Positions 14,871 through 64,000 of a stretch of DNA of 64,000 nt are shown here, one piece after another (the first letter of the stretch is position 1; each line of letters begins with the position of its first letter). The position numbers and the translations under genes are program-made. The DNA comes from an uncultured Candidatus Bathyarchaeia archaeon (lineage in GTDB: Archaea; Thermoproteota; Bathyarchaeia; Bathyarchaeales; Bathyarchaeaceae): the NCBI GenBank assembly GCA_964510635.1, contig CAZEBS010000005.1, positions 32,016 through 96,015 on the forward strand. Reading direction: 5' to 3'. A model generated the notes under the pieces. That model was not told the DNA's origin and did no database searches. It saw only the letters and a program-made list of their open reading frames with translations.

Positions 14871-15065
14871 GGGATGGAAATTGCATCCCATGCAAGTGGA
14901 GAAAATCATCTCCAATCACTCAGATATAATACTTTAAGTATGAAATAAGATTGGACATGATGGTGGGGATCAGGAACGTATAAAGAGCACCCAGCGTTTG
15001 AAAAGCCAATTGATGAAAATATTAAAATTTGGCGTTATATTGATTTCACAAAATATGTATCTCTA

Positions 15066-15755: not shown

Positions 15756-15893
15756 ACTGAACAATGTGAAATCCTTTCTATGAGTTGAATAACTTCTGAA
15801 TATTTTTTCACAGCATACAGATTTTGGATTACTTTACCAGAGACCCGCACAAAAAATGGGTGTGGTTAATAGTTGGGAGTGTTAACCACGGGG

Positions 15894-16895
15894 TTATATG
15901 GGGTAGTTTCCGCAGATTTTGCAGAAGCCGATTTTTGTGTCAACGTATCCTTTGCATTTGGGGCATTTTCTTCCCACAGGTTCACCGTAGACTTCGGAGG
16001 GTTTTCCGAAAGTTTTTCTGAAAATCTCATAGTATACCAGTTGCTCTTTGGAAATTAATTCCACATCGTCTTCTTCCAGAACTAGCTTCTTTTTCTCCTC
16101 AAAATCTGCTGTCGGCATCTCTTTTTCAAAGTAGTCTGGCAGAACCCATGTTCCAGTTCCTCGTTCCAGAGGCGCTTTTCCTCGCCAGATTACCTCGTCT
16201 GGAATAAAACCATCATAGGCTTTACGGAGAATCCATTTGCCAAATTTCTCGCCATTATGAAGGTTCACTTTGAGGTTTACTGGAAGCTTCTTCGCGTAAT
16301 CCATGAACAGGGGATCAAGATAGGGCTGACACACTTTCACGCCAATTGAATCGCCCATAGGCGTAGAGGAGAAAGCCATTTCGCCCCACATATCAGACAA
16401 TGCCTTAGCAAACTCGGCTTCAGACAGATGAAACTGCCAGGGATAGCCGAAGAGCTCGTCTAAAGCATCGCCAGTGAGAACACTTTTGATGCCCTTCTCT
16501 TTCGCTACCTTCAGTCCTATGTATGCGGGAAGAGTGTTTCTGACATCCATGGGGTCAAAAGTCTTCAGCACCTTCACAACATCTTTTGCAGCATCAATTG
16601 CAGCTTCCACGTTAAAGGCGTAGGTTTCATGATTAAGCTTAAGAAACTCCACCATTTTCTTGACATACTGGGTGTCTTTAGGCTTTCCCTGCTGAAAAGC
16701 AACAGTTATCGCAGGAATGTCCGGGTTAAATTTGACTGCCTCATAGGCTATTATGCTTGTGTCAGTTCCAGCTGAAAACAAAATTCCTTCAGCCATATTG
16801 TTTTTGACAACTGTGCTAACTAAAGCACGAGCCTCAGGCAAAAGTTTAGCTAAATCCTGTTCAACGGATTTCATATCATATTCTTCCTTTACCAT
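15894..16895 (-). CDS. asparagine-synthetase-domain (PP-loop ATP pyrophosphatase) protein with C-terminal zinc ribbon; no glutaminase domain
   Basis: ILFSAGTDTSIIA matches the AsnB-type SGGxDS PP-loop. The C-terminus is CPKCKGYVDTKIGFCKICG. Confidence 0.75.
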   Translation of the reverse strand: MVKEEYDMKSVEQDLAKLLPEARALVSTVVKNNMAEGILFSAGTDTSIIAYEAVKFNPDIPAITVAFQQGKPKDTQYVKKMVEFLKLNHETYAFNVEAAIDAAKDVVKVLKTFDPMDVRNTLPAYIGLKVAKEKGIKSVLTGDALDELFGYPWQFHLSEAEFAKALSDMWGEMAFSSTPMGDSIGVKVCQPYLDPLFMDYAKKLPVNLKVNLHNGEKFGKWILRKAYDGFIPDEVIWRGKAPLERGTGTWVLPDYFEKEMPTADFEEKKKLVLEEDDVELISKEQLVYYEIFRKTFGKPSEVYGEPVGRKCPKCKGYVDTKIGFCKICGNYPI

Positions 16896-29930: not shown

Positions 29931-30182
29931 CTTTATTCAGGGGTGCAACTGTAATCAGTTTCAGAATATTAACTTTATTGCAGTCTTTAACAGTAAGAAA
30001 AAAGAGAAAAGGGTCTATTTCTCTAGCCGAAAATGGCAAGATAATGAAGCTTTGTCACTTTCGACAGGAGAAATAGAATTAGCTAAACATTTAGGCGTTG
30101 TTTATTTTTATAGCCTAAGGAGTGGAAATTACAAGTAGGAAAAATAATGGTTGTAGTGTCAAAAAAATAGGGACAGTTTAGG

Positions 30183-30686
30183 CTACGCAACGTAATAAAC
30201 CACGTATGTAGCCCAACTACTACCTGGAAACTCGAAGTAATAGTCCTCGCAGGTTGCTCTAGCCCATGCAGTCTCTTCCTGTCCACAATAAGCTCCAGTT
30301 CCTTCTACGACAGCATGAATTGCAATAATTATATTTTCTTCAGATATATCACCTAAAGGAATAACGTAGCTAAGCCCATTCTTGTATTCGAATTTTCCGA
30401 CTTTTGGATTACCACTTTTAGTTTGAGGTATATCACTTAACACTTGACCAATAGCAACATGAGTTTCGGTTATCACCCAATCAACGCCAAAAATATCAAT
30501 ATGAAGGTCTACGCCATCGTCCCAAATTTCAGCATAGCCAGCATTGATGTATTGTCCAGCAATAAGGTCAACTACCAAAGGAGACCCTTGAGGTTCTGCA
30601 AAAGCTATAGCAGCTGTACTAAACAAACCAATGATAAATAAAGATACTATCAAAGATGACATGACTTTTTTGATTATCTCTTCCAC
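30183..30686 (-). CDS. secreted hypothetical protein (about 160 aa)
   Basis: Signal-peptide-like MSSLIVSLFIIGLFSTAAIAFA. Confidence 0.5.
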   Translation of the reverse strand: MEEIIKKVMSSLIVSLFIIGLFSTAAIAFAEPQGSPLVVDLIAGQYINAGYAEIWDDGVDLHIDIFGVDWVITETHVAIGQVLSDIPQTKSGNPKVGKFEYKNGLSYVIPLGDISEENIIIAIHAVVEGTGAYCGQEETAWARATCEDYYFEFPGSSWATYVVYYVA

Positions 30687-31038
30687 CTCCTATACGTATT
30701 AGTGACTTTTTATTTTTCAGCATCATTATTTAATATGTACGGAAATTAGTTCTATTTCTATAATAGACAAGAAAAAGCGGATTTAGGGAGTAAACTATAA
30801 CATATACACAGCCAATCTACCTATTTTATAAGAGCGAATCACAAAAATTAGCGAATCAAAACAGTTTTTCTCACAAACACAGATTAACTATTTCTACAAT
30901 CAAAAATAACCAAACACTGAAACGTTCTTCTCAACAAACAGTGTAGACAGTGCACAAGAGTGCATAAAGAAAGTGCTTAGCCGAGCAAACTAAGCAACGT
31001 AACATAAGTTGATTACAAAGAAAGAAAAAAAGGGAGAG

Positions 31039-43776: not shown

Positions 43777-45111
43777 ATGGCAAGCGAAATCGAAACAGGA
43801 ACAAGGTACATTCCTGAAATGTCCAAGAAAGAGATCGAGGAACTGGGGAACTCAATCAAAGCTTCATCCATTAAGGTGATTGAGGACAACATCGAAAGAA
43901 TGAAAAAAGCATGGAAGAACCGACCTGAAGCCATGGAGTATTTCGATGAAATCTCAAACTTGTTTGGGCGCCGCGAAAAAGAGATTCGTGAACAGAAAGC
44001 GGCTGGAAAAAAGGTCATCGGCTACTCCTGCATTCTTGCTCCCATTGAACTGATTCTGGCTGCCGACGCAATTCCAGTTCGCATAGGCTCAGGATGGTAC
44101 GACACAGCAAAACTTGGAGACCGAATCATGCCAGTTGAAATCTGCCCAGTGATACGCTCTACGGTCGGCGCAAAAATGGTAAGTCTAAGCCCATATCTTG
44201 AACTCAGCGACGCCATAATAATGCCCCTCACATGCGACGGCAGAACCAAACTTAGCGAAATGCTGTCAGACTTCAAGCCAATATGGTACATGAATCCTCC
44301 CCGAGTCAAAGATGACTCCCACACCTTGGACATGTGGAAAGAGGAAATCATGGTAATCAAAGAAAAAATCGAGAAACTGACAGGAAACAAGATTAACAGA
44401 CAAAAACTCAAAGAAGCAATAGAGACAATGCAACAAGCAACAAAGGCGTTCCGTAGGCTGCAGGAGTTTCGGAAAGGAAATCCAGTCATAAATGGAAGAG
44501 ACGCAATGCTTGTGAACCAAACAAGCCTCTGGGACGACATTAAACGTTGGACCCAAAAAGTGAATGAACTGTGTGATGAACTGGAAAAACGCCTTGAGCA
44601 AAAGGAGTATTCTTCGTATCCTGACACATCAAGAGTTATGATTACGGGAACCCCAATGTTGTGGCCTGACAGCTGGAAGGTTCCGAACCTAATCGAAGAG
44701 TCTAACCCCCAAGGCATTGTGGTTGTGGATGAGCAATGTTCAGGAGACAGAATTCTCTATGACCCAGTTGGAGTAGATGAGTGGACAATGAGTGACATGT
44801 TGACTGCAGTAAGCGAAAGATACCTTATGGCATGCACGTGTCCCTGCTTTACTTCAGAACACGGAAACGAGGACCGAATCAACTGGATTATCGACAGAAT
44901 TAAAGAGTACAAGGTTGACGGCGTAATCTACTACGTGGTCAGAGGCTGCATCCTCTACGCCATGGAATACGCCCGAATCAAGCGTGTCCTCGACAAAATG
45001 AACATACCCGTTTACTATCTTGACACAGAGTACACCCGAGAAGACGTCGGACAGATGAAAACAAGGGTTGAAGCTTTCCTGGAGATGCTCGAAGCAAGGA
45101 TGGACATTTGA
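43777..45111 (+). CDS. 2-hydroxyacyl-CoA dehydratase / benzoyl-CoA reductase B/C / double-cubane-cluster protein family
   Basis: At 444 aa, the length and layout are typical of the HgdB/BcrB family. Conserved-looking Cys sit in GYSCILAP, EICPV, LTCDG, EQCSGD, CTCPCF and RGCILY. Two activase genes follow. Confidence 0.8.
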   Translation: MASEIETGTRYIPEMSKKEIEELGNSIKASSIKVIEDNIERMKKAWKNRPEAMEYFDEISNLFGRREKEIREQKAAGKKVIGYSCILAPIELILAADAIPVRIGSGWYDTAKLGDRIMPVEICPVIRSTVGAKMVSLSPYLELSDAIIMPLTCDGRTKLSEMLSDFKPIWYMNPPRVKDDSHTLDMWKEEIMVIKEKIEKLTGNKINRQKLKEAIETMQQATKAFRRLQEFRKGNPVINGRDAMLVNQTSLWDDIKRWTQKVNELCDELEKRLEQKEYSSYPDTSRVMITGTPMLWPDSWKVPNLIEESNPQGIVVVDEQCSGDRILYDPVGVDEWTMSDMLTAVSERYLMACTCPCFTSEHGNEDRINWIIDRIKEYKVDGVIYYVVRGCILYAMEYARIKRVLDKMNIPVYYLDTEYTREDVGQMKTRVEAFLEMLEARMDI

Positions 45112-45125
45112 GGAGACAAAAGTAG

Positions 45126-45908
45126 ATGATTTCTGCTGGAATGGACTTAGGAACCCAGAGAGTGAAAGTAGTCATCCTGAAAGACAACCAGATAATAGCA
45201 AAAAGCCAACAATTTTCAGGATTTGAACCAACCAAAGCCGCTGAACAAGCCCTCCAAGAGGCACTACAGAACGCCAAACTATCCCGCGAAGACATACAAC
45301 ACATCACAGCAACAGGCGCAGGAGTAAACATGGCTCCCTCCGCAGACAGCACAATAAGCATGATGGGAGCAGACGCCAGAGCAGGAGCCTACTATTTTCC
45401 GTCAGCAAGAACAGTGATAGATATTGGAGCTGAGGACGCCCGGGCAGTAAAATGCGACGAAAGAGGAGTTATGCTGGATTTTGTTGTGAACGCAAGGTGT
45501 GCAGCTGGAGCAGGCACATTCATCGAGGCTATGGCAAGAGCCTTAGAAGTTGAGTTAGAGGATTTGGGCTCCCTGTCCCTGAAGGCAGAAAGAGCAAGCC
45601 CCATAAACGCCAGTTGCGTAATCTTCGCAGAGTCTGACGTTGTTTCCCTGATTCACAAAGACGAACCGAAAACTGAAATCGCCCGAGCCATCTTCGACGC
45701 CATGGCTGAACGGGTTGCCTCCATGGTGCTTCGGTTGGGAATAAATCAGGACATTGTTCTTGTTGGGGGAGTGGGCAAAGATGAGGGGTTCGTTGCTTCT
45801 CTTAAGAGGAGACTGGGAACAGAAATACTGATACCAGAGGACCCAATATACGCTGGCGCGGTGGGCGCCGCCTTAGTTGCCGCCAAAAGAGCTGCGAGGA
45901 GGCGATAG
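45126..45908 (+). CDS. BcrAD/BadFG-type activase ATPase (acyl-CoA dehydratase activator-like)
   Basis: The ASKHA fold starts with GMDLGTQRVKVV. Cluster-bridging Cys are in NARCAAGAGTF and INASCVIFAESD. Confidence 0.9.
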   Translation: MISAGMDLGTQRVKVVILKDNQIIAKSQQFSGFEPTKAAEQALQEALQNAKLSREDIQHITATGAGVNMAPSADSTISMMGADARAGAYYFPSARTVIDIGAEDARAVKCDERGVMLDFVVNARCAAGAGTFIEAMARALEVELEDLGSLSLKAERASPINASCVIFAESDVVSLIHKDEPKTEIARAIFDAMAERVASMVLRLGINQDIVLVGGVGKDEGFVASLKRRLGTEILIPEDPIYAGAVGAALVAAKRAARRR

Positions 45909-45912
45909 AGAG

Positions 45913-46815
45913 ATGGAGAACAAGGAAGGAAAACAGGAATACTGGAGATGGCTTGAATACCGCAGTGTTATGCCAGGCAAAAACTGGGAGAACGCTGAAG
46001 TATTAACCGCTGGAGTGGACGTTGGTTCTGTGGGCTCCAAGGCAGTTGTCATGGCGGATGGAGAAATTTATTCGTGGAGTGTAATGCGGACTGGTTCTAA
46101 CAGCTCTGACAGCGCCAAGAAAGTGCTGGAATGGGCAATGGAAGATACTGGGATGTCCGTCAAGGACCTCAACTACATTGTAGGAACAGGCTACGGCAGA
46201 GTTAACGTTCCCATGGCTAACAAAGCCATCACAGAAATCGCGTGTCACGCCAAAGGCGCTAACCACATCTGGGGACCTACAGTAAGAACAGTGCTGGATG
46301 TAGGCGGACAGGACGTCAAGGCAATCCGAGTTGACGAGACAGGCAAAGTAGTCTCTTTCCTGATGAACGACAAGTGCGCCGCAGGCACAGGACGAGGAAT
46401 GGAAGTCATCGCTGACCTCCTGCAGATACCCATCGAAGAGGTCGGCAAAGTATCCCTGAGCGTAACCGAAGACCCCAAACCAGTCAGCAGCACCTGCGTA
46501 GTGTTTGCGAAGACTGAAGCGGTTGGACTGTTACGTCAAGGATGGACAAAAGAAAAAGTGTTAGCAGCATACATGAGAGCCATGGCTATCAGAATGAGCG
46601 AGCTAATAGAAAAGGTGGGTTGCGAAAGGGACTTTGTCATAACTGGGGGACAATCCAAAAACATCGGAATAGTACACAGAGTAGAAGAAATCTTAGGAGT
46701 CAAACGGCTTCCAGTTCCAAACCTAGAGCAGACTGGACTTGACCCCGTTTCTGCTGGCGCAATAGGAGCAGCCCTGTATGCCAAGGCACTACACGAAAAA
46801 TCCCTTAGACGTTGA
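45913..46815 (+). CDS. second BcrAD/BadFG-type activase ATPase
   Basis: GVDVGSVGSKAVV, NDKCAAGTGRG and SSTCVVFAKTE. I prefer the ATG at 45913 over the TTG at 45877. Confidence 0.9.
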   Translation: MENKEGKQEYWRWLEYRSVMPGKNWENAEVLTAGVDVGSVGSKAVVMADGEIYSWSVMRTGSNSSDSAKKVLEWAMEDTGMSVKDLNYIVGTGYGRVNVPMANKAITEIACHAKGANHIWGPTVRTVLDVGGQDVKAIRVDETGKVVSFLMNDKCAAGTGRGMEVIADLLQIPIEEVGKVSLSVTEDPKPVSSTCVVFAKTEAVGLLRQGWTKEKVLAAYMRAMAIRMSELIEKVGCERDFVITGGQSKNIGIVHRVEEILGVKRLPVPNLEQTGLDPVSAGAIGAALYAKALHEKSLRR

Positions 46816-47220: not shown

Positions 47221-48234
47221 ATGGGTTGCCCAGTCCCAAAAGTAAACGATGTGATGAAAGAGTCATGGGACTACCTGATAGTTTTGGATGCTTGCAGACA
47301 TGATTATTTTAAACTTGAGTATGAAAAATTTTTTCAGGGCGAGTTAGAGAACCGTATATCCTTGGGTTCAGCAACATCAGAATGGTGTCGAAAACAGTTC
47401 AAAGGCTACTTCCCTGATGTAATATATGTTTCTGGAAACCCATATATCAACTCGAGAAAAGCAATTGCAGGGTTTGATGCCAAGAAACATTTTTACAAGG
47501 TCATAGATGTTTGGGATTTCGGATGGAATGAAGAATTGTGGACAGTACCCCCAGAAGAGGTTACTGCTGCGACGTTAAATTTAATCGGCAAATTCCCAAA
47601 AAAGAGGGGGATAATTCATTATCTGCAACCTCACGTTCCTTATATCTCACCAAAATTCAAGATAAACCTCAAAGGTGCACCGGTTATAACTGGATGGCGC
47701 AATCACGCCCGGAACTCCAACTTAGGTGAATCAAAAGTTAAGAGATGGTTGAAAAGCCTAGTGAATAAAATTTCGAGAATTTTAAAACACCATATACATG
47801 TCCTATTCATAAAGATTGGGCTTAACCGCCAATACGAATTGCGGAAACTGTTTGGTTTGCCTCCCGCTAGACCAATGGAGGCCACGTGGAGATTGTATGG
47901 CGTAAAAGGACTCAGAGAAGCTTACAACGAAAACCTCAAAATTGTTTTGGAACACGTAACCGTATTATGTATGGAAATACTGCGCCATAAACCGTCAGCA
48001 CAGATAGTAGTTACTGCAGATCATGGTGACCTCCTAGGAGAAAACGGAAATTTTGATCACTACCCTGGAAGTAAGGATTTGGTGCTGTTAGAAGTTCCTT
48101 GGCTAAAAGTCAAAAGTGTAAAAAAGTCTGGAATCACACAGTTGCACACATCTTTCACTAAACCTGTTGAAGGAAGTTATAGAACAACATTAAAGGAAAA
48201 AATAAAAAGAATGAAAAAATCAGGAAAAATTTAG
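47221..48234 (+). CDS. alkaline-phosphatase-superfamily protein (sulfatase/phosphodiesterase-like), function unknown
   Basis: LIVLDACRHDYF, HYLQPHVPY and VTADHGDLLGENG resemble the metal-site motifs of this superfamily. The start is uncertain (TTG 47152 or ATG 47221). Confidence 0.5.
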   Translation: MGCPVPKVNDVMKESWDYLIVLDACRHDYFKLEYEKFFQGELENRISLGSATSEWCRKQFKGYFPDVIYVSGNPYINSRKAIAGFDAKKHFYKVIDVWDFGWNEELWTVPPEEVTAATLNLIGKFPKKRGIIHYLQPHVPYISPKFKINLKGAPVITGWRNHARNSNLGESKVKRWLKSLVNKISRILKHHIHVLFIKIGLNRQYELRKLFGLPPARPMEATWRLYGVKGLREAYNENLKIVLEHVTVLCMEILRHKPSAQIVVTADHGDLLGENGNFDHYPGSKDLVLLEVPWLKVKSVKKSGITQLHTSFTKPVEGSYRTTLKEKIKRMKKSGKI

Positions 48235-48270
48235 TGAATCACGCACACACAACAAAAGTTGCTCTAAATG

Positions 48271-48486
48271 CTAAAAGTAACCCAAGTTTTTCAATCGCTT
48301 TTTGATTTGTTCTTTGTCATTGCAGTTTCTTTGTTCATTATTTTCCTCTTCGCTCACAACTTCTCTTAGAACAAAATCAATGTAATCTTCTACGCTCCTG
48401 AACTCTCCACCGCTTTCATTAACCCTAGACTTAACCAATTCATACAAATTCTTTGAAACATTAACAGTAACGTGGTCTTCACTCAT
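48271..48486 (-). CDS. ribbon-helix-helix (CopG-like) protein
   Basis: MSEDHVTVNVSKNLYELVKSRVNESGGEFRSVEDYIDFVLREV resembles the protein at 14269-14439. GAGGTG lies 6 nt upstream of the ATG at 48486. Confidence 0.55.
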   Translation of the reverse strand: MSEDHVTVNVSKNLYELVKSRVNESGGEFRSVEDYIDFVLREVVSEEENNEQRNCNDKEQIKKRLKNLGYF

Positions 48487-48724
48487 TACGGGCACCTCGA
48501 CTACCAAAACAAGATTCTAAATAGTAATAAGCTTTTATCAAGTTCTCTTTGTTTTTGGCTGCTACTTGCTTGCTGTTGGCAAGGGGCAGATTTGGACCAA
48601 ACTTGCCTTATCTGACATAGTCTATTCAGGCATTTCTGGGAAATTGGAAAATCAAACAGGTAAATGAATAAATGCTAAGTAGTGTTTCCAGAAATTAAGT
48701 GGTGGTAGAACGAAAAAAGAGACG

Positions 48725-49411
48725 TTATTGTGGATGTGGCTTGCGTAGCGCATGTTTAACAGTATTCGCTGTTTCCACATGTACTAGCCGATGGTTTTTT
48801 CCGCATATTGGACATGACCAAACTTGCCCTGTGTCAACCTCTTTTCTAGGTGGCTTTGGTTTCAGCAGCATCTTTTTTTCTTCCAGTTTCTCTTCTGGCG
48901 TGGACTTTGAAAGCGACCAAGCTCTTTCAAGCACAAAAAGGGTTATGATTTCTTTTTCATTTTCTGGCTTACACAAAGTAACCAAATATTTACCAGGTGC
49001 TTTTTTTCCAGTTGCCTCTTCATATGATTTGATTTCGTAGTTTTCTCTGATTACGGCTGGAACATCTTCGACGGTGGCGACAATCCTTCGATTAACCCTA
49101 TTGTTCTCATCCGCTTCCGTTAAAGAAATCACGTCATAGAGCATGCCCTCAATAGTGCTTTCTTGGAAAACCATGGTTCTTCCTTCCAGCTGCGAGAAAA
49201 GGATACCAGCAGGACATTTCACAGCTTTAACCAAAATCTTTCCCTGCTCCCGGTCTTTACAAAGTTTTAGAAGCCACTTGCCAGTAAGGAAGTCTTTAAC
49301 TGTGTAATAGCTTACTTCGCCGTTCCTTAATTGGCGCAAACTCATGTCGTACCATGCATCGTCTGGTCGTGTTTCAATTCGTCTAACTTTGATATGGTTC
49401 AGAAACTGCAA
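48725..49411 (-). CDS. hypothetical protein (228 aa) with C-terminal CPICG zinc-knuckle-like motif
   Basis: ORF track. It lies 150 nt downstream of the S-layer-like gene on the same strand. Confidence 0.5.
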   Translation of the reverse strand: MQFLNHIKVRRIETRPDDAWYDMSLRQLRNGEVSYYTVKDFLTGKWLLKLCKDREQGKILVKAVKCPAGILFSQLEGRTMVFQESTIEGMLYDVISLTEADENNRVNRRIVATVEDVPAVIRENYEIKSYEEATGKKAPGKYLVTLCKPENEKEIITLFVLERAWSLSKSTPEEKLEEKKMLLKPKPPRKEVDTGQVWSCPICGKNHRLVHVETANTVKHALRKPHPQ

Positions 49412-55792: not shown

Positions 55793-56110
55793 ATGGTTTA
55801 TTGTGTAAAGTGTGGCTCAAAGCTGGTTGATGATGCCTTGTTTTGTTCTTCTTGTGGCGCCGCGGTTGGGAAAGTGAAAACTGAGGAATTTTCTGTATTG
55901 GCTGACGACCTTATTGAGCGCGTAAAGGAGCTACTTCATGAAGGCAACGTCACCCGAATAATCGTGAAAGACGAGAAAGGAAAGGTTCTGTTTGAGATAC
56001 CTGCCACAGTCGGAGTTATCGGCGCTGTTCTTGCTCCATGGCTAGCAGCATTAGGCGCAATAGCCGCAATAGCCACAAACTGCAAGATAGTAGTCATAAG
56101 ACGAGAATAA
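55793..56110 (+). CDS. zinc-ribbon plus DUF4342-like protein
   Basis: YCVKCGSKL...CSSCG is followed by GNVTRIIVKDEKGKVLFEIPATVGVIGAVLAPWLAALGAIAAIATNCKIVV. Confidence 0.7.
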   Translation: MVYCVKCGSKLVDDALFCSSCGAAVGKVKTEEFSVLADDLIERVKELLHEGNVTRIIVKDEKGKVLFEIPATVGVIGAVLAPWLAALGAIAAIATNCKIVVIRRE

Positions 56111-56455
56111 AACCAAAACAGCATCTTGCATGGTTTTCCAGAAAAAGCTATTTTTGGAAGTTTAACTACCGCAAAAAATTATTTTGCGTCTTGAACTCTG
56201 GTTTAGCAGGATCTATAATTTTCTCTGAAGATAATCGAAGAAAATACTGTTTTGATAGCTTAACCACCGTGAAAATCCATCTTTGGCTTTAAATTGCGCT
56301 TTTGTAAATAGACGCGCTTTTAGTATATAATTGTTGGAATTTTTTTGGTTTCAAGTAATTATCATGTCATATAGAAGAACAGAATCTAAAGAAAAACTGT
56401 GGATAAATGTTAAATATTCAAAGCTCGAAGAGATAATTTTGGGGGAGTCTCAATT

Positions 56456-58267
56456 TTGATTAAAAAAGCGGCACTCTGCATGTGTCTGATTTCTATATCT
56501 TTAGTTATTTGTATTTCTATCACGAAAGCTCAAGATACTGTTTATCCCTTAGTCGCATTATCCTCTAATGAGATTAGTTTCTATGGTAAAGAAGGTAGTG
56601 ATATTGTATCTTATGATCTGAGAGTGATAGGGCTAGTTGATAAAGATGTCACAGTGAAACTATCTTCTGCTACATTATACGATAACAAGTCAAGTAATAG
56701 TATTACCCTTGAGGCCAGCGAAGTTCCCGAAAAGGTGAAGAAAAATATTGAGCAAACAATCACTTTGGAGCTTAATATTGCGGGGAAAAAACCAGGAACA
56801 TACAAAGGAGCAATTATAGCTACAGCTCAAACAACTGACAATATAACAACAACCAATATTCCAGTAACGGCCAAAATTGAAGAAGATACTCCATGGTATA
56901 TTCCAATTGGTGAAGCGAGTCTTGTGATCGTCACTATTGTTCTGATTGGGGTTGCTCTTGGGATTCCGGAAAACACAGAAAAATTTCTTTGGGGACGTAA
57001 AGTTTATTCAAAAAGGCCATGGGTAATTATCTTAGGAATAATTGTTGTTTCTTTGTGGCTTGTTTCACTTGTAAGTACGGATATTGGTGAACCAAGCAAT
57101 ATGGTTACCACCGTGCTAGTTACACCTTTCATTCTTTATGTAATAAGCTATGTAAAGGATAAGAGAACTGAAAGGCTGGAAAAAGAAAAAGTTTCACGGA
57201 CAGTACAGAATGAAGGAATAAAAGAAGATGTTAACTTAATCAGAAGCTTAATTGGAGAACTTTCTTCGCACTGTGCAAGTTTCAATCCATATTATTGTGA
57301 AATAAAGTTGGGTATACCTCCTACTAATTATGTAACGGAAAAACAGGTTGTTTATCACAGTAGTGGAATAATATCTGGGGAAGTGTGGAAGGATAATCGA
57401 AAACAAGGTATTGTAGCAGATATCCATACTCTTTATTTAGAAAAATATTATGACTTTGTTCCAAAATACAATCACCTGTATCGAATGGCTAGATATCTTA
57501 TTCAAAATCCAAAAAAAATAAAATCACCCAACACACTACAGGGTTTCTTAAGCTTATTTGACGAATTCAGGGAGAAATTTGGTGAACTTGAGAAGATACT
57601 TTTTGTCTATCTTTCATATATCCTTGAGTTGTGGTCGAGAACAAGATTATCACCAATGAAAGTTAACTATCCGCGAATATCCAGAACTTTGCTGAATAAA
57701 CTTATTGACTATGAAATATTGAAACCTGGATTGCAAATTGAAGAATTGGGTGGGTTTAAAGAAGACAAATTGTCCAAAAAGTTACAACAAGATGTTATGG
57801 AAGACAAGACTAAAAGCCCCAGAGAACTACAAAAAGTAGAATCTCTTATGGAAAATAATACGGCAAGGGAGTTATTAACTAAATTCAAAGAAGCTGTGAA
57901 GGACAACAATAAGCAAGCTCTCGCCTGTTACGATGAATTAGATAGCTGGGTAACACAGAAGTTCAGGAATAAAATTGACGATTGGAAATTTAGTGCTAAA
58001 GATATGGAAAAAATAACTAAAGAAATCTATAGCGCAGATAACATCACCAAATTCTTCGATAAGTTTCAAAAAGATTTTTATGAAAAATATTATAATTTGA
58101 AGAAATCTGACGTTCTTAAATTAACGGGATTGCCCACATTACCAGATGAAGAAGAACCCGAGAAAAAAGAATACACTCTCAAAATTGGTAATCTATACAA
58201 AGAACAACCGAAAGAGGGTGAACCAACACCCACCAAAGACCCCTTTGACGTACACCACATAAAATGA
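56456..58267 (+). CDS. membrane protein (603 aa): signal peptide, about 130-aa beta-rich ectodomain, 3 TM helices, about 370-aa helical cytoplasmic domain
   Basis: TTG start with GGGGGA upstream. Signal-like CLISISLVICISITKA. TM segments are ASLVIVTIVLIGVALGI, WVIILGIIVVSLWLVSLV and VTTVLVTPFILYVISYV. No family recognised. Confidence 0.6.
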   Translation: MIKKAALCMCLISISLVICISITKAQDTVYPLVALSSNEISFYGKEGSDIVSYDLRVIGLVDKDVTVKLSSATLYDNKSSNSITLEASEVPEKVKKNIEQTITLELNIAGKKPGTYKGAIIATAQTTDNITTTNIPVTAKIEEDTPWYIPIGEASLVIVTIVLIGVALGIPENTEKFLWGRKVYSKRPWVIILGIIVVSLWLVSLVSTDIGEPSNMVTTVLVTPFILYVISYVKDKRTERLEKEKVSRTVQNEGIKEDVNLIRSLIGELSSHCASFNPYYCEIKLGIPPTNYVTEKQVVYHSSGIISGEVWKDNRKQGIVADIHTLYLEKYYDFVPKYNHLYRMARYLIQNPKKIKSPNTLQGFLSLFDEFREKFGELEKILFVYLSYILELWSRTRLSPMKVNYPRISRTLLNKLIDYEILKPGLQIEELGGFKEDKLSKKLQQDVMEDKTKSPRELQKVESLMENNTARELLTKFKEAVKDNNKQALACYDELDSWVTQKFRNKIDDWKFSAKDMEKITKEIYSADNITKFFDKFQKDFYEKYYNLKKSDVLKLTGLPTLPDEEEPEKKEYTLKIGNLYKEQPKEGEPTPTKDPFDVHHIK

Positions 58268-58430
58268 TGTTGGCAAACGCGAAGAAATCAAACACAAGAT
58301 GTTTATAAATAGTTTTATCCCTATTTAATCCGCGAAAAACAGTTTTTGAATTCTTGACCTCCGTAAAAAATGATTTTGGGCGATAAATCGAGTTCTAGGC
58401 GGGATTCAACTTTATTAGGAAGTTGGTTGT

Positions 58431-58480
58431 AGAAAAATTGGATTTTTCAACAATCATCTGCTATTAGGCTCCTAATATGA
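58431..58480. repeat. copy C of the three-copy intergenic element (perfect palindrome TATTAGG-CT-CCTAATA at 58462-58477)
   Basis: Hand alignment with copies A and B. Confidence 0.7.
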
Positions 58481-58533
58481 AAGCTTCTGTGTGGTGGTTT
58501 GGCTGGGCTTCGGTTGCAGATAAGATAGGCGTT

Positions 58534-58716
58534 TTAGAGGATGTCGAGCATTTCTTTCAGGGATTCTGCTTCTTCTCGCAGTTGGGCTACTTCCTCTTCT
58601 AGGGTTGTGGCTTTTGTTTCTGCTTTTTCTCTGAGTTCTTCCAGTTCCGCCAGAAGATCAGCTTTCTCGCTTTCCAGCTTCGTTATCTTTTCTCGGAGAT
58701 CTCTTAAAGTAGGCAT
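58534..58716 (-). CDS. 60-aa coiled-coil protein, paralogue of the C-terminal half of the protein at 17506-17910
   Basis: LRDLREKITKLESEKADLLAELEELREKAETKATTLEEEVAQLREEAESLKEMLDIL aligns with LGDLKEKIEKLKLQKAELLDEIEGLKRAGEEKADTLEKEVTSLREEVESLKEILGDY. Confidence 0.45.
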   Translation of the reverse strand: MPTLRDLREKITKLESEKADLLAELEELREKAETKATTLEEEVAQLREEAESLKEMLDIL

Positions 58717-58923
58717 AATTTCTCGTTAATCTCCATCTACCGCTTCCCCATAGGTTCCGCGGTTCATTGCTACTTAACAGACTAGCCAAAATCGGCTAAA
58801 AACTTTTAGGTGCAATAACGTTCGGACCATACCGTGAACGGTGTATTTACGTCTTCTGTACCGTTGTTATAAGGTATACTCTGGAAAGCTTTAAGCGGTA
58901 ATCAACGAACTATCTGAAGGAGG

Positions 58924-59214
58924 ATGAAGTGGATGAGGATGCGAACTTTTTTGGCATATTTTCATCTGCTGAACTTCGTGATCATGATAATTGCAACAGT
59001 CTATGTTCTGAACAGTCAATGGGGACAACTGGAAGAGTGGATGCTAACCCTCTACGTCTACTATATAATACTGGGGCTCTCTGGCGTGTCCATCGCCACT
59101 TGGATTGCCATAGACGGAAAACGGCTAGAACGTTATGCCGTCCACATAAAAAAGCTAGAAGAGAAACTCGTAGCCTTGGAAAAGAAAATCAGACTCATAA
59201 AGCCCCACAACTAA
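58924..59214 (+). CDS. small 2-TM protein with C-terminal coiled-coil tail (96 aa)
   Basis: ORF track. Hydrophobic segments are LNFVIMIIATVYVL and YYIILGLSGVSIATWIAI. Confidence 0.4.
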   Translation: MKWMRMRTFLAYFHLLNFVIMIIATVYVLNSQWGQLEEWMLTLYVYYIILGLSGVSIATWIAIDGKRLERYAVHIKKLEEKLVALEKKIRLIKPHN

Positions 59215-59319
59215 AAAAGTGCCTAAGTTTAGGTTACTTCCAATATCCACGGGTAACTCGAAAGTTTTTCGAAATTTTGCCATTTTTTGATATACTCCCA
59301 TTCATCTTTTCACCTCCTT

Positions 59320-60351
59320 TTATTGCCATTCATTTTCCTCTAGAAAGAAACTTAATTCTTCCTCTTCGTTCTCGATTTCCCATTCTTCCGTATCGTCTAG
59401 TTTTTCCGTGTAGCCTTTAGATTTTACTCTTTCGTTATGCTCCATAACTTGACTTAAGGGCGATTTGAAAAGCCTAGAGAAAAAGCCTTTCTTCTTTTGT
59501 GGTTGTGGTGTTTGTGGTTTTGGTTTAGTTACTGGTTTGATTTCATAAGGCTTTTCTGAGGTAGTGAACTTAGGGAATTTCACTATCGAATCGTTTGCAG
59601 TATAAAGAAAAGTTCCTCTTTCAAAGTTTAGGATTTCAGTTTTGTATTTGCTGTTTCTGAGCAATCGCCTGACTTTAAGCTCATAATCGTCAAGTGAAAC
59701 GTTACCCAACAAAAGCCTAACTCTTCCCCGAATCCGTGTGTTTAAATCCTGTAACCTCTGAGAACACATCACAAAATGCAAATCAAGATTTCTGGATTCA
59801 GAAAATATTTTCCGCATCCTGTTAAAGAGTTTCTTGCTGATTGTTGAACTGTCAAAGATGTTTTGGCTCTCTTCTACTATGAAAACGATTCTTTCAGTTT
59901 TGTTGTAATTTTTGTAAAGTCTCAGGTATGCCCTACGGTAAAAATGGTTTACTACCGAATAGACGAAAAAGGCGATTCGTTCGATGTCTCGAATCTCTAA
60001 AGTGAAAATCAAATCTTTGTTTTCCGCTAAGGCTTCTTTGATTTCTTGACCTCTAAGAACCGAATAATCCCTTTCATGTCGAAGGAAATAGTTTTCTACG
60101 TCTATCTCGTGTCGTGTCTCTGTAACGTCTCTGTCATGAATCCGCATGAATGGAACTGATTCAAACTCTTTGCAGAACTTAGGAAAAGTTTCAAAGATTA
60201 TTACCCTAGTTTCTGGGAGCTTTCGAAGTTCTGAAGCTAAGACTTTAAGAGCGTTTGTCTTACCTATGCCTTTATTCGCAATCAGTAGCAAATCGCCAAA
60301 GCTGAGAACGTCTTCAATCAACGGTTTTAGTTGCTCATTGTTTTGTTGCAC
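59320..60351 (-). CDS. compact FtsK/HerA-superfamily P-loop ATPase with acidic C-terminal tail
   Basis: Walker A is LLLIANKGIGKTN. Walker B is RIVFIVEESQNIF. SESRNLDLHFVMCSQRLQDL resembles the E(G)RK.G...(T/S)QRP..L motif of HerA/FtsK/VirB4-like ATPases. The tail is DDTEEWEIENEEEELSFFLEENEWQ. Confidence 0.7.
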   Translation of the reverse strand: MQQNNEQLKPLIEDVLSFGDLLLIANKGIGKTNALKVLASELRKLPETRVIIFETFPKFCKEFESVPFMRIHDRDVTETRHEIDVENYFLRHERDYSVLRGQEIKEALAENKDLIFTLEIRDIERIAFFVYSVVNHFYRRAYLRLYKNYNKTERIVFIVEESQNIFDSSTISKKLFNRMRKIFSESRNLDLHFVMCSQRLQDLNTRIRGRVRLLLGNVSLDDYELKVRRLLRNSKYKTEILNFERGTFLYTANDSIVKFPKFTTSEKPYEIKPVTKPKPQTPQPQKKKGFFSRLFKSPLSQVMEHNERVKSKGYTEKLDDTEEWEIENEEEELSFFLEENEWQ

Positions 60352-60704
60352 TTTTCACCACAGCATTTTTTGGTTAAACCTATGTGAAAACGGGTTAAAA
60401 AACGTTTGTTTTGGGCTTATTTTGTGATTTAGAGCGTAAAAACAGCTTATTTTTGGTGAATTGCACATAGGCGTCTTTTTGAACATTCACGTTTCTAAAA
60501 CTATACTTTTAGGAAACAGAGCGGTTTCCGAAACCTAACACATACAGGTTTTAAATAAGGAACCTTAACGCAACATGTTTAATGGTTCTCTAAACAATTA
60601 CATTGTTAATTCTTTTGTTCTCTAGATGGTCAAGTATTTTGAGCGATTTCTTAGAACGTTTTTTGAGAAAGGGTTTTTTAGAAAAAATTTGAGGGGGTAG
60701 GGGG

Positions 60705-61373
60705 CTAATCCCAATCTCGTGAAATAATGAAAAACATTGCCAGAAGTAAGCAAAAACCCACTATAACGGGTATGGCAATTCCAAATATAAAATTTGATTC
60801 AACTTTCATATAGCTCAAAAGCCCTAAGTAAATTACCATAAATGCACCATAACCACCTCCTAAACCTGAAAGCCATTTTATTAGGGCGTTTCTCTCAAGA
60901 TTGCTTTTTTTGGCTTTCCACTCAGAATATTTATCAAAAAGACTATTTTCTGAATCCTTCAATAGTTGAATACAGTCGTCAAGAGAATTGGTATTTCGAG
61001 AATTGTTTTCTGCTTTAACTAATTGCTGTCGAGTTTTTTCTAATTCAACATTGATAGAAGAGGTATCAATAAATATGAACTTATCCAAAGCCCTCACGAG
61101 TTTTGAAGTTTTTTCCATGATTTTCTCGCATATTTGTTTATGCAAAGAAAATTCTAATGCGAGCAATTTTTCATTGGCATTCGCATTTTTTCCAGATAGT
61201 AAATCTTTCGTCCACTCGATATAAAAAATACCCAGTTTACGACTTGATTCTCTTAAATCTATTTCATAGAGTGTTTCTGCACCAATAACCTCACTCATCA
61301 GTTGTGTAAATTTCATGAATTGATTAGCGGTATCAAACGGAAAAGATTGCGTATTTTTACCCCCTTCCGTCAC
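60705..61373 (-). CDS. membrane protein: about 165-aa helical N-terminal domain plus two C-terminal TM helices
   Basis: The GTG start at 61373 overlaps the upstream gene by 17 nt; an alternative ATG is at 61316. TM segments are GGGYGAFMVIYLGLLSYM and FIFGIAIPVIVGFCLLLAMFFII. Confidence 0.55.
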   Translation of the reverse strand: MTEGGKNTQSFPFDTANQFMKFTQLMSEVIGAETLYEIDLRESSRKLGIFYIEWTKDLLSGKNANANEKLLALEFSLHKQICEKIMEKTSKLVRALDKFIFIDTSSINVELEKTRQQLVKAENNSRNTNSLDDCIQLLKDSENSLFDKYSEWKAKKSNLERNALIKWLSGLGGGYGAFMVIYLGLLSYMKVESNFIFGIAIPVIVGFCLLLAMFFIISRDWD

Positions 61374-61551
61374 CCTTCAATAATTTGACGAACATGTAAG
61401 CGAGAAACGCAAAAGCAATTAGTGAACCTAAACCAAAAAAATTACTTGCCCAATCATTTTGTCCTGTTGCCACAGACGAAAAAGACAAAACTAAAGCTAA
61501 AGCAGCAATAGCCAATATTCCGTAAGCAAAGAATGAAAAATTAATTGCCAT
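61357..61551 (-). CDS. 64-aa two-TM protein
   Basis: FSFFAYGILAIAALALVLSF and FFGLGSLIAFAFLAYMFV. AGGAG lies 8 nt upstream of the ATG. It sits 76 nt downstream of the SIR2 gene. Confidence 0.5.
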   Translation of the reverse strand: MAINFSFFAYGILAIAALALVLSFSSVATGQNDWASNFFGLGSLIAFAFLAYMFVKLLKGDGRG

Positions 61552-61627
61552 ATCTTCACACTCCTACCATATATTTTAATAATTCAGCTTTAACTTTTTC
61601 CGCCTTTTTGAGTTTAGCCTAAATTAG

Positions 61628-62710
61628 TTAAAGTGCTTTATCCAATTCTTCAGTTACCAACACAGTTGAAAGTAACTGGTAAGCTTTCTGAGAGCCAAAT
61701 GGATAATTAAAACATTTAATTTGTTTTTCCAATCGTTTTTCTCCAATAATTAGATTATCGGTCACGTCTTTTGTAGCTGATGGAGAAAGTACAATCAAAT
61801 TGTGTTCTTTGTTTGCTCTAAGATAATCTAAAAATGTATTGTTTATCTGAGGGTCTCTAAAAGAAAAACCAATAACCAAACAAACTTTATGCGAATTTAA
61901 GACTTGCTCAAAATATTTTTGCAGTATCCTGAAAGGTTCACCTTTTGTATAATCCTTTTCGGCTGGATAAATAAGTAGGTTCTCTGTGTACCTTTTGGTT
62001 CGTTGAGAAATTCTTTCTTCAATGGGTACCCGTTCAATTCTATTCTGTGAAGTTTTACGCCAATCTAGTGAACCATGCAATTTGTAAAGTCTAATATTTC
62101 GAGCAAACGGTTGGGATGTCTTTCTTTTGAACTCTTCAGGATGCCAAAATTGTCTATTATTTCTTTTATCGGTTCTAAAACCACATGAAAAAACACTATT
62201 CTCAGAATTCATACAAAAGTTTTCTATGATGCTGTCATAGTTTGTAGTAAAAACGTGGATATCTAACTGATTCCAAATTTCAACGAATGAAAAAAGCCGT
62301 TGGTATTCTTTAAGAGCCTTGTCAAGGATATTATCGTTAAATTCGTATTGACTAAACAATTCATTTATTATGTTTTGTTTTAATTTGTTACAATAACGCA
62401 GAAATGAATTCCAGTCCATTTCGAGACCAGATATGTTTAATACAGCTTCATTTTTCCTAAAAAGTGTCTTTAAATAATCTGCGGAATCTGGATTAACAAT
62501 AGGGTCAAGTATCTTAAGTACATGTTCAATATCAGATACTTTCGGTAAACTGAGGATTGAGTTAAGAATGCCTAATTCTAGAGGTTCTACAATCTTCTTT
62601 AGTTCAGTCACAAATTCCGAAGTGGTCGGGTAATCAAAAGCCCTCGAAGCTCCTGCTCCCAGAAAATAAGAAACCTTCTGAGGTTCTTCACGCTCATTGT
62701 TCTTGGACAT
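61628..62710 (-). CDS. SIR2_2-family (defence-type SIR2-like) protein
   Basis: YFLGAGASRAFDYPT, VFTTNYDSIIE, LYKLHGSLDW, LLIYPAEKDY and CLVIGFSFRDPQIN reproduce the order and wording of SIR2_2 motifs (GAGxS, TTNYD, KLHGS, IGxSxxD). I prefer the ATG at 62710 over the TTG at 62725. Confidence 0.85.
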   Translation of the reverse strand: MSKNNEREEPQKVSYFLGAGASRAFDYPTTSEFVTELKKIVEPLELGILNSILSLPKVSDIEHVLKILDPIVNPDSADYLKTLFRKNEAVLNISGLEMDWNSFLRYCNKLKQNIINELFSQYEFNDNILDKALKEYQRLFSFVEIWNQLDIHVFTTNYDSIIENFCMNSENSVFSCGFRTDKRNNRQFWHPEEFKRKTSQPFARNIRLYKLHGSLDWRKTSQNRIERVPIEERISQRTKRYTENLLIYPAEKDYTKGEPFRILQKYFEQVLNSHKVCLVIGFSFRDPQINNTFLDYLRANKEHNLIVLSPSATKDVTDNLIIGEKRLEKQIKCFNYPFGSQKAYQLLSTVLVTEELDKAL

Positions 62711-62857
62711 GCATCCCAACTTCAATGATTTATGATTTCATTAGGGTACCTATGACTGCATAAATCTTATAAATTTCTTTTCTTCAGCGGTTCATCTTCC
62801 GTAACGCACGTCTATGAGACCTCAAAAAAGCCTAGTTTTAGACCTCAGAGGGAAGAG

Positions 62858-63106
62858 TTAAGGATAATGACCGAATTTTATGAAATAATCACGTTCTGAT
62901 ATTTGGTTTGCTGTTTGCGTTTGGATGGTCTTAAGAAAGGTGATAAATTGTCTATCAAAGATTTTTGGGTCAAGTATAAGATGCATTTTTTGGAACATCA
63001 AAATTACGTTTCCAGTTGATGAACAATATCCGAAATAGACTCCATTCTTGTTTAAGTAGTGGTGTTCACCTTTACATTCTGGGCAACTTTTCCATTCGCA
63101 CGTCAT
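62858..63106 (-). CDS. small hypothetical protein (82 aa) with N-terminal CPEC motif
   Basis: GAGGTGA lies 5 nt upstream of the ATG. No family recognised. Confidence 0.45.
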   Translation of the reverse strand: MTCEWKSCPECKGEHHYLNKNGVYFGYCSSTGNVILMFQKMHLILDPKIFDRQFITFLKTIQTQTANQISERDYFIKFGHYP

Positions 63107-63124
63107 TTCTTCACCTCTTTTCAG

Positions 63125-63253
63125 TTAAACGATTCTATAGCTTCGATTCTGTAGTTTTTCTCTAAGCCATTTTTCCTGTTCTTCATCTGGGAGGTTAGAG
63201 AGCGTATAATCTAAATCCCATTTCAGTTGCTCAATAGTTCTTTTCTTAGGCAT
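63125..63253 (-). CDS. 42-aa hypothetical protein (below track cutoff)
   Basis: My own translation is MPKKRTIEQLKWDLDYTLSNLPDEEQEKWLREKLQNRSYRIV. GAGGTGA lies 5 nt upstream. The gene begins 6 nt after the upstream stop. Confidence 0.3.
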   Translation of the reverse strand: MPKKRTIEQLKWDLDYTLSNLPDEEQEKWLREKLQNRSYRIV

Positions 63254-63259
63254 TCTTTT

Positions 63260-63874
63260 TCACCTCTTCTTTTTCTTATCACCCTCATAACCTAACTCCC
63301 TCAGTTTCTCATTGATTTGTTTAAGTCTAGCCTCATGTTCATGAAGCATATCCAAATTCTCTTTTACTTTACCGTCCTTGATAACTTCACCAAAATTCTC
63401 AATCCATTTTTCAACTTTGGCTTTTTGTTCCAACAGCCTTTTTATGTTCGGGAGATTTTGAATCCGTTTTTTGTCCTCAATGCTGTCCTTTTTAAAATCA
63501 AATTTATCTTTGCGGATTCCCGAATTGGCTTCACGAATTGAGAGTTCACGTTCCTTTAATTCGAGTTCTTCCCTTCTTAATTCGTTTGATTCTTCACGCT
63601 TTTTCTGTCTCTTCTTTTCTCGCTCCAATTTATCACGTTTCATTTCTGTGGTAGTTCTGCTATACCTCTTCATATGTTCATCAAAACATTCTTGACCATG
63701 CATTTTGACAAATCCCTCTTTGTGAAGTTGAAGGAAATCTCTAGCCACAACCTGAAAAGCTGGAAGACCTTTAGGATTTGGTCGGCTTCTAATATAGTCT
63801 AGTAGCTCGCTAGTTGCACTTATCCTTATGTTGTTTTTCGGTTGTCTGTTTCCGCTAGACTTAGTTCCTACCAA
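63260..63874 (-). CDS. RHH-like N-terminus plus long charged coiled-coil protein (204 aa), first gene of the island gene string
   Basis: NIRISATSELLDYIRSR...LPAFQVVARDFLQLH has a strand-helix-helix look. It is followed by KRDKLEREKKRQKKREESNELRREELELKERELS. TTG start with GAGGTAA upstream. Confidence 0.5.
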   Translation of the reverse strand: MVGTKSSGNRQPKNNIRISATSELLDYIRSRPNPKGLPAFQVVARDFLQLHKEGFVKMHGQECFDEHMKRYSRTTTEMKRDKLEREKKRQKKREESNELRREELELKERELSIREANSGIRKDKFDFKKDSIEDKKRIQNLPNIKRLLEQKAKVEKWIENFGEVIKDGKVKENLDMLHEHEARLKQINEKLRELGYEGDKKKKR

Positions 63875-63924
63875 CTTTTTACCTCAGTTTAATCAAACAT
63901 TTGAAAATATAGAAGTAAGTTATC

Positions 63925-63933
63925 AAATATAAA
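63925..63933 (-). promoter_or_regulatory. TATA box (TTTATATTT on the minus strand) for the island gene string
   Basis: It lies about 50-60 nt upstream of the start at 63874 and is immediately flanked by the palindrome array. Confidence 0.45.
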
Positions 63934-63940
63934 CCTTTGC

Positions 63941-64000
63941 TTAATCATCTGATTAATTTAATTAATCACCTGATTAAATCTGAATGATTAATCACATGAT
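63941..64000. promoter_or_regulatory. array of three 16-bp palindromes TTAATCA-NN-TGATTAA (operator or iteron-like); the third is cut by the window edge
   Basis: Read directly: 63941-63956 is TTAATCATCTGATTAA, 63962-63977 is TTAATCACCTGATTAA, and 63988-64000 is TTAATCACATGAT. The starts are spaced 21 and 26 bp apart. Confidence 0.7.

Follow-up and report, generated by a model that had tools for sequence, protein, structure and literature searches.

We analyzed a 64,000-nucleotide (nt) stretch of DNA from an uncultured Candidatus Bathyarchaeia archaeon (contig CAZEBS010000005.1; the whole of this stretch is the window below), in which the gene for a SIR2-type protein is followed on the minus strand by the genes for two membrane proteins, termed p64 and p222, and then by the gene for an ATPase of 343 amino acids (aa). 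An earlier note, made from the letters of the window, had proposed that SIR2, p64 and p222 form an undescribed archaeal defense module. What it said of the genes themselves is confirmed: there are three minus-strand open reading frames (ORFs), which include one for a 64-aa protein with two transmembrane helices and one for a 222-aa protein with two C-terminal transmembrane helices, and downstream of the trio lies an FtsK/HerA-type ATPase, now recognized by its fold, all within an AT-rich island. The proposed three-gene defense system does not hold, because the membrane genes are not conserved beside SIR2 in relatives, and the trio is not a conserved entity. We think it rather probable instead that the locus consists of independent modules that have been juxtaposed in the cargo region of an integrated archaeal element of ~12.3 kb.

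The SIR2 protein and its clade

The SIR2 gene (61628..62725, minus strand) encodes a standalone SIR2_2 protein according to the ORF list, Pfam, PADLOC and the alignment of its family. The ORF gives a product of 365 aa from a TTG at 62725 and of 360 aa from an ATG at 62710, and since the gene caller chose the ATG and the N-termini of homologues also begin there, the 360-aa form is the more likely one. The protein carries the SIR2_2 motif series in the order GAGAS (residues 23-27, Rossmann), TTNYD (N162, D164), KLHGS (H217) and IGFSFRD, with a helical insert of ~120 residues separating GAGAS from TTNYD, and GAGAS, N162, D164 and H217 are invariant across a 43-sequence alignment of the family. 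At E values of up to 0.1, Pfam yields PF13289 (SIR2_2) alone (1.5e-14; 54.7 bits, the gathering score being 24.5), and a housekeeping deacetylase sirtuin (PF02146) was rejected on that ground. Aga_SIR2 is the top PADLOC model (2e-29), generic SIR2 models also match, and the ThsA models match the SIR2-domain part alone (6e-8), while no SLOG, APAZ, STAND or DSR-type extension was detected in the scans with Pfam and PADLOC models. The points about this protein on which the earlier note depended are all borne out, namely the motif order, the presence of the catalytic N/D/H positions, the bareness of the SIR2 domain and its distinction from the housekeeping type. To judge from its sequence, SIR2 is a genuine and intact SIR2_2-type, defense-like sirtuin.

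When a profile of the SIR2 clade was compared with the Protein Data Bank (PDB), the top three matches were 8j4u from Escherichia coli (6e-23, full length), 8yhx from Staphylococcus aureus (9e-20) and 8w9l from Paenibacillus (2e-19), all of them SIR2 subunits of SIR2-HerA systems (PMC11514289, PMC11472057, PMC13434337). The NYD and HGS motifs of these solved subunits align with N162/D164 and H217. Specifically, N162 and H217 align with the conserved dyad N226/H287 of S. aureus Sir2, where mutation of H287 abolishes the NADase activity (PMC11514289). The likeness to SIR2-HerA (Nezha; 8j4u/8su9, 8yhx, 8w9l) lies in the same GAGAS, TTNYD and KLHGS core and in a SIR2 subunit of 381-428 aa, compared with 360 aa here. 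However, the clade of the window protein is mostly archaeal, its identity to the solved proteins is low, and the NCBIfam SIR2_antiphage equivalog gives SIR2 40 bits, far below the cut-off of 500. In addition, SIR2 and the ATPase are separated in the window by the two-gene cassette and by the 353 nt between p222 and the ATPase, no HerA partner is conserved, and the nearby ATPase has no HAS barrel and co-occurs with SIR2 sporadically. The SIR2 subunit is thus related to those of a SIR2-HerA two-gene system, but both the HAS-barrel HerA and the conserved pairing are missing. Thoeris ThsA, DSR1/DSR2 and SPARSA have the same SIR2_2 catalytic domain as SIR2 and were rejected. For Thoeris, SIR2_2 is the only domain detected in the 365 aa, there is no SLOG, and the scanned window neighbors include no TIR protein; for SPARSA, neither APAZ nor Piwi occurs in the genes of the window or in the 94 neighbors from the clade; and DSR1/DSR2 are proteins of ~1000 aa with a C-terminal sensor extension, compared with 360-365 aa for SIR2 and 340-400 aa for its clade.

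The wider comparison drew on 163 related loci taken from genome, metagenome and viral collections, plus the contigs of the closest homologues. There are 432 SIR2 homologues, mostly standalone and of 340-400 aa, with identities of 35-57% in the family, and those with a named source belong to Bathyarchaeia, Heimdallarchaeota, Nitrososphaeria and other Thermoproteota metagenome-assembled genomes (MAGs). These sequences point to a clade of standalone proteins of ~350-370 aa that is largely archaeal, and the standalone architecture is kept over about 50 loci. The SIR2 clade is without a recurrent partner gene: among the 94 nearest neighbors in 39 loci the commonest Pfam family is HNH, with 3 occurrences, neither HerA/DUF87 nor Piwi is found, and defense-type neighbors are scattered (TIR, restriction endonuclease (REase), Mrr, PIN, PD-T4-1 and PDC-S35). 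One homologue (P0016), 48% identical to SIR2, is a lone gene flanked by purine-biosynthesis genes and an alpha-amylase-family gene. A tblastn search with SIR2 of the deposited phage and archaeal-virus genomes returned one weak partial match. The only fusion noticed in the top 120 SIR2 matches is P0018, a protein of 632 aa in which PF18884 is fused to SIR2_2 and which is 47% identical over 87% of SIR2. A related element (L168:801-2044, minus strand) has SIR2 broken into two overlapping ORFs, of 236 and 210 aa, through either gene decay or a frameshift in the assembly, and at another locus (L114) the ATPase is split likewise.

The p64-p222 cassette and its relation to SIR2

The two genes downstream of SIR2 are both on the minus strand. 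The ORF of p64 (61357..61551), the first gene of the cassette, encodes 64 aa with two hydrophobic helices, and p222 (60705..61373), defined by its ORF and an AlphaFold2 (AF2) model, is an all-helical protein of 222 aa with a GTG start. In the model, which has a predicted local distance difference test (pLDDT) score of 83.6, an N-terminal four-helix bundle is followed by a 60-residue stalk helix that runs into the first transmembrane helix (~residues 168-188) and then by the second (~195-218); the fold search against the PDB gave nothing with E below 0.3. With p222 starting at GTG 61373 the two genes overlap by 17 nt, whereas gene callers put the start at a later ATG (codon 20), which yields 203 aa and no overlap with p64. 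Because the similarity of p222 homologues (36-41% identical) extends upstream of Met20, the alignments beginning at query residue ~7-12, the longer p222 and the 17-nt overlap are probably correct, and the overlap reported in the earlier note is supported on condition of the GTG start.

The p222 family is rare, with 14 clusters in 1.84 billion representative proteins, and p64 has no significant Pfam, PHROGs or PADLOC family, its best Pfam match being T4SS_pilin at E = 0.09. A p64 homologue lies directly upstream of every retrieved p222 homologue (L170, L171/172 and L173/174), a small sample of three independent loci besides the window. Across these four loci p64 is 63-88% identical and is better conserved than p222. 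With such homologues for SIR2, p64 and p222, the genes described here are no chance occurrence. The cassette also stands out at the nucleotide level. In blastn comparisons, the identity over window 61601->60637 is 89% with L171 and 90% with L172, and over window 61552->60677 it is 76% with L170, in each case with unrelated flanks. The p64-p222 module is thus a nucleotide-similarity unit of ~965 bp (60637..61601, minus strand) that has both SIR2 and the ATPase outside it; the similarity to L171 begins 27 nt past the SIR2 stop codon and ends ~68 nt past that of p222. The spacer between SIR2 and p64 is 76 nt long and contains a TATA-like TTAAAATATA stretch and then GGAG before the ATG of p64, features that probably give p64-p222 a promoter of its own. 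In L170 and L171 the gene upstream of the cassette is on the opposite strand.

Conservation of the trio was assessed from both sides. When p64 and p222 were searched by phmmer against all six-frame ORFs of the fetched loci, neither was found beside SIR2 in any of the 38 SIR2-family loci whose sequence continues downstream for at least 1 kb, and SIR2 is absent from those p64-p222 loci that reach far enough upstream (L170, L171 and L172). These results, together with a cassette similarity that starts just after the SIR2 stop codon, overturn both the proposed module of SIR2 with the two membrane proteins and the expectation that the membrane genes would be conserved next to SIR2 in relatives. It is nevertheless correct, as the earlier note had it, that the trio belongs to no named system, since PADLOC models assign none to the three genes. 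We conclude that p64-p222 is a self-contained, translationally coupled two-gene cassette that adjoins SIR2 only at this locus.

The ATPase and the integrated element

The ATPase gene (59320..60351, minus strand) encodes a minimal P-loop ATPase of the FtsK-HerA superfamily, as indicated by its motifs, its AF2 model and Foldseek. It has the Walker A motif KGIGKTN (residues 27-33), the Walker B motif FIVEESQN, a disordered linker and an acidic C-terminal helix, and KGxGKTN and hhhhEESQN are invariant in the alignment of the family. There are at least 152 homologues with identities of 53-85%, so this family is far more tightly conserved than that of SIR2 (35-57%). The AF2 model (pLDDT 81) has a beta-hairpin insert (residues 67-98) and no N-terminal barrel. 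In Foldseek it matched HerA, the STIV2 B204 packaging NTPase, the PH1 virus ATPase and A32-like ATPases with a probability of 1.0. HerA of SIR2/HerA complexes came top (8e-7, template-modeling (TM) score to the query 0.51) and HerA of NurA/HerA complexes was also matched (E about 1e-6, TM score to the query ~0.5), while the TM score to the target was 0.68-0.71 for B204 and 0.70 for the PH1 ATPase. The 343-aa protein therefore resembles HerA and the A32/B204-type packaging ATPases in its Walker A and B motifs and its RecA-like core, and differs from them in having no HAS barrel and in having its own beta-hairpin insert and acidic C-terminal helix. The fold search alone was informative in this respect, as the ATPase profile had no match among PDB sequences, there was no Pfam match to DUF87, and the match to the PADLOC HerA model (E = 0.026) was confined to the Walker A region. 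A PADLOC match to mad8 (1.5e-6) was read as generic P-loop similarity, the text of the MADS preprint being without mad8 domain information. The C-terminus of the family consists of a poorly conserved linker and a strongly acidic tail, usually with a final aromatic residue (W or F), and in sequence this tail looks like a conserved docking peptide.

All of these genes lie in a stretch where the GC content drops from about 0.44-0.49 to 0.33-0.39, from ~56000 to the end of the window, which is the AT-rich island of the earlier note. On the GC profile, the in-window part of the element spans 56100..64000 (no strand), its left boundary being approximate. A second assembly of the locus (L164) matches window 58444-64000 without a difference and runs past the window end. 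In this assembly the low-GC stretch stops ~4.5 kb beyond the window, at a tyrosine integrase of 392 aa (PF00589) with housekeeping genes next to it, and the element thus measures ~12.3 kb, from ~56.1 kb to ~68.5 kb in extended coordinates. Because the integrase adjoins housekeeping genes, the span is low in GC and families are shared with other elements, the island is an integrated mobile element. Scans of the window for tRNA genes and Rfam families gave nothing, and no tRNA integration target was identified. The idea of a provirus was not confirmed, as neither the ATPase nor p222 had a tblastn match in deposited phage and archaeal-virus genomes, and the ATPase had no relatives in IMG/VR with either the single sequence or the alignment.

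Outside the integrase, SIR2 and the ATPase, the genes of the element are without family assignment in the Pfam, NCBIfam and PHROGs scans. These include three small genes upstream of SIR2 (62858..63874, minus strand; 204, 42 and 82 aa), identified as ORFs and also called in L164, which have no family match and whose relatives in the fetched loci are in L164 only; the one of 82 aa is rich in Cys and resembles a zinc ribbon. At the end of the element lies the gene for a 603-aa protein, p603 (56456-58267, plus strand). Its N-terminus resembles a signal peptide, it has ~4 transmembrane segments, and its C-terminal half is long and helical. No family match and no relative among the fetched loci was found for p603, which may serve the element as an adhesin or envelope protein.

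The window element has its integrase and several small-gene families in common with other ATPase-bearing elements, and the ATPase is a conserved core gene of this element family. What lies beside it varies. In L170 the gene for an SRPBCC protein stands between p64-p222 and the ATPase. In L175 (L175:3173-13341, contig CAZUQX010000007.1, GCA_964623205.1), the ATPase region is a dense defense island on a sibling element, with a type IIG restriction-modification (R-M) gene (3e-131), a CBASS-type cyclase (2e-116) beside SLATT_4, a Shedu-like SduA_C protein and a PDC-S35/TIR protein. The cargo beside the ATPase is a type II methyltransferase (MTase) and two unknown genes in L176-178 and a fused MTase-REase in L179-180. 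The simplest reading is an integrative-element family in which the ATPase is conserved and the slot next to it, for cargo or defense genes, varies; in the window this slot holds two separate cargo modules, SIR2 and p64-p222. Hotspots of this kind are known from P2/P4-like prophages and satellites in bacteria. The likeness is that of a backbone gene beside a slot with differing defense genes (here SIR2, R-M, CBASS-like, Shedu-like and TIR), and the differences are that the hosts here are probably archaeal, to judge from the named homologues and from archaeal-type neighbors in related loci, that the element family is uncharacterized and that almost none of its genes are annotated. In two sibling contigs (L082:3353-5748 and L167:213-2999) five same-strand genes (~112, 180, 180, 247-311 and 74 aa) precede SIR2 and the ATPase, and one of the 180-aa genes has a homologue of 190 aa in the window element (64896-65468 in extended coordinates). 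The layout of this five-gene block resembles that of the block before the ATPase in wyrdviruses, a likeness in layout with no sequence link shown.

Proposed roles, alternatives and other features of the window

We now put forward a probable account of the locus as independent modules. From its family and its context, SIR2 would most likely consume NAD+ and halt growth of the cell when a competing virus or element enters, and it would thus be a single-gene abortive-infection or exclusion function that is carried by the element and benefits both element and host. Because there is no conserved partner, the trigger would probably be sensed by SIR2 itself or by factors encoded elsewhere, and the candidate self-sensing part of the protein is the ~120-residue helical insert between GAGAS and TTNYD. 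The p64-p222 cassette would move between elements independently of SIR2 and, because it is rare and sited in the same variable slot, would most likely be another accessory membrane module of the exclusion or abortive-infection/defense type. The ATPase would probably serve DNA packaging or transfer for the element, and variable cargo would accumulate beside it.

Several points weigh against this account. SIR2 lies immediately upstream of the ATPase in three other loci (L082, L167 and L114), of which L167 is a contig of a Heimdallarchaeota MAG where the two genes have the neighboring locus tags DRO91_03855 and DRO91_03860, and the closest solved relatives of SIR2 are HerA-dependent, so a functional link to the ATPase is possible. 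In the window itself, SIR2 and p64-p222 could be co-transcribed by read-through. The ATPase contexts sampled independently of SIR2 number four or five, and most of the retrieved contigs are short metagenomic fragments. A comparison of window 55.5-56.7 kb with 67.8-69.3 kb in extended coordinates, the places where attachment (att) sites were sought, gave no same-strand direct repeat longer than 10 nt, and the element may be either a provirus or plasmid-like. Finally, the defense role of SIR2 is inferred from family membership and context.

A related but unlikely proposal divides the locus into two novelties. In the first, SIR2 would be a HerA-independent, single-gene NADase defense of SIR2-HerA stock that is perhaps activated by the ATPase of the element, and in the second, p64-p222 would be a new membrane exclusion or abortive-infection module. 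If the first were true, the core motor of a mobile element would have been co-opted as an immune sensor. To our knowledge, the characterized SIR2 antiphage effectors are all restrained by a fused or adjacent sensor, whether SLOG, HerA, APAZ-pAgo or the C-terminal region of DSR. Should the present widespread clade be shown to defend, the question would arise of how a minimal SIR2 is triggered, and the thin experimental record of archaeal defense would gain an addition. Two points are of some interest whatever the roles: a sizeable clade of short, partner-less SIR2 proteins related to HerA-dependent ones, and an undescribed family of archaeal elements. For the latter, a new outline emerges of an uncharacterized archaeal integrative-element family with a minimal FtsK-HerA ATPase and a defense hotspot, and such a hotspot is a practical place for finding new archaeal defense genes, p64-p222 being one candidate.

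The adjacency of SIR2 and ATPase could also be taken as a miniature SIR2-HerA system, in which the ATPase senses and activates, SIR2 depletes NAD+, and p64-p222 has been inserted between them in the window. We regard this as quite unlikely, even though the three best PDB matches of the SIR2 profile are SIR2-HerA subunits, the top match of the ATPase model is HerA from a SIR2/HerA complex, and SIR2 directly precedes the ATPase in the three loci named above. The ATPase is found near SIR2 in 3-4 of the 51 SIR2-family loci and occurs without SIR2 in L170, L175, L176-178 and L179-180, and in L168 the split SIR2 is 4 kb from the ATPase and on the other strand. Even among close relatives of SIR2 (at least 250 bits, with at least ~0.8 kb of downstream sequence) the ATPase is absent from L165, L081 and L083/L181 and present in L082 and L167. 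In the S. aureus Sir2-HerA complex, the N-terminal beta-barrel of HerA docks into the Sir2 ring and HerA binding turns the NADase on (PMC11514289), whereas the ATPase here has no such barrel to plug into a ring. Moreover, its match to HerA models does not extend past Walker A, the small viral packaging ATPases fit its fold as well or better (TM score to the target 0.7), and it is conserved far more strongly than SIR2.

A structural role for the cassette, with p64 as a small two-helix capsid protein like those of spindle-shaped archaeal viruses or as a pilin-like protein, and p222 as a membrane assembly factor working with the ATPase in a provirus or transfer apparatus, appears to us distinctly improbable. 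In wyrdviruses such a His1-type capsid protein occurs together with an adhesin, a block of five genes and an ATPase that has no transmembrane segment (bioRxiv 10.1101/2021.07.29.453957), and the size and two hydrophobic helices of p64 fit the described His1/wyrdvirus-type capsid proteins, although this likeness is generic only. The stronger conservation of p64 relative to p222, the position of the cassette just upstream of the ATPase in the window and L170, and the presence of the large secreted or membrane protein p603 at the end of the element would also suit such a role. It is nevertheless a weaker alternative than an accessory membrane role, because other ATPase-bearing elements are without the cassette: it is absent from L082, L167, L168, L175, L176 and L179, and no small gene with two transmembrane segments is common to them. 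The 14 clusters of p222 contrast with the at least 152 homologues of the ATPase, p64 matches nothing in PHROGs or Pfam apart from T4SS_pilin at an insignificant E value, and virus collections yielded no relative of the ATPase or p222, as given above. A His1/SSV1-type capsid protein is accordingly not supported for p64, given its missing PHROGs/Pfam homology and its absence from the six other ATPase-bearing elements.

That SIR2 has a non-defense role, acting as a deacylase or ADP-ribosyltransferase on host or element proteins or manipulating NAD+ metabolism, is very unlikely in our estimation. SIR2-fold enzymes do include deacylases and ADP-ribosyltransferases, SIR2 has no conserved sensor partner, and one close homologue (P0016) is the lone chromosomal gene among metabolic genes described above, but SIR2 matches PF13289 and the defense SIR2 models rather than PF02146, every well-scoring solved relative is an antiphage NADase, and both the SIR2 neighbors and the slots of sibling elements are enriched in defense genes. 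Least credible of all is joint action of SIR2, p64 and p222 at this locus as a recent, lineage-specific combination in which the membrane proteins would be, for example, a sensor, an anchor or a second effector. In its favor one can cite the shared strand, the 76-nt gap and 17-nt overlap, an interval between SIR2 and p64 in which no terminator-like site was found, and the placement of all three genes in a slot where defense genes accumulate. Against it, the combination is confined to one locus that was assembled twice (the window and L164), the conservation tests are negative from the SIR2 side and the p222 side, and the cassette forms a module by itself, upstream region included.

Elsewhere in the window, the 1-kb bins 15001-16000, 30001-31000 and 48001-49000 have GC contents of 0.345, 0.360 and 0.377, compared with 0.41-0.49 in their surroundings, and these three bins may be other small insertions. 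At 43777-46815 (plus strand) the genes for a 444-aa protein and two ATPase-like proteins of 260-312 aa are clustered. JGI gives the name 'benzoyl-CoA reductase subunit D' to a protein that clusters at 90% identity with the 260-aa one (45126-45908), which hints that the host has an anaerobic system of the 2-hydroxyacyl-CoA dehydratase or benzoyl-CoA reductase type.

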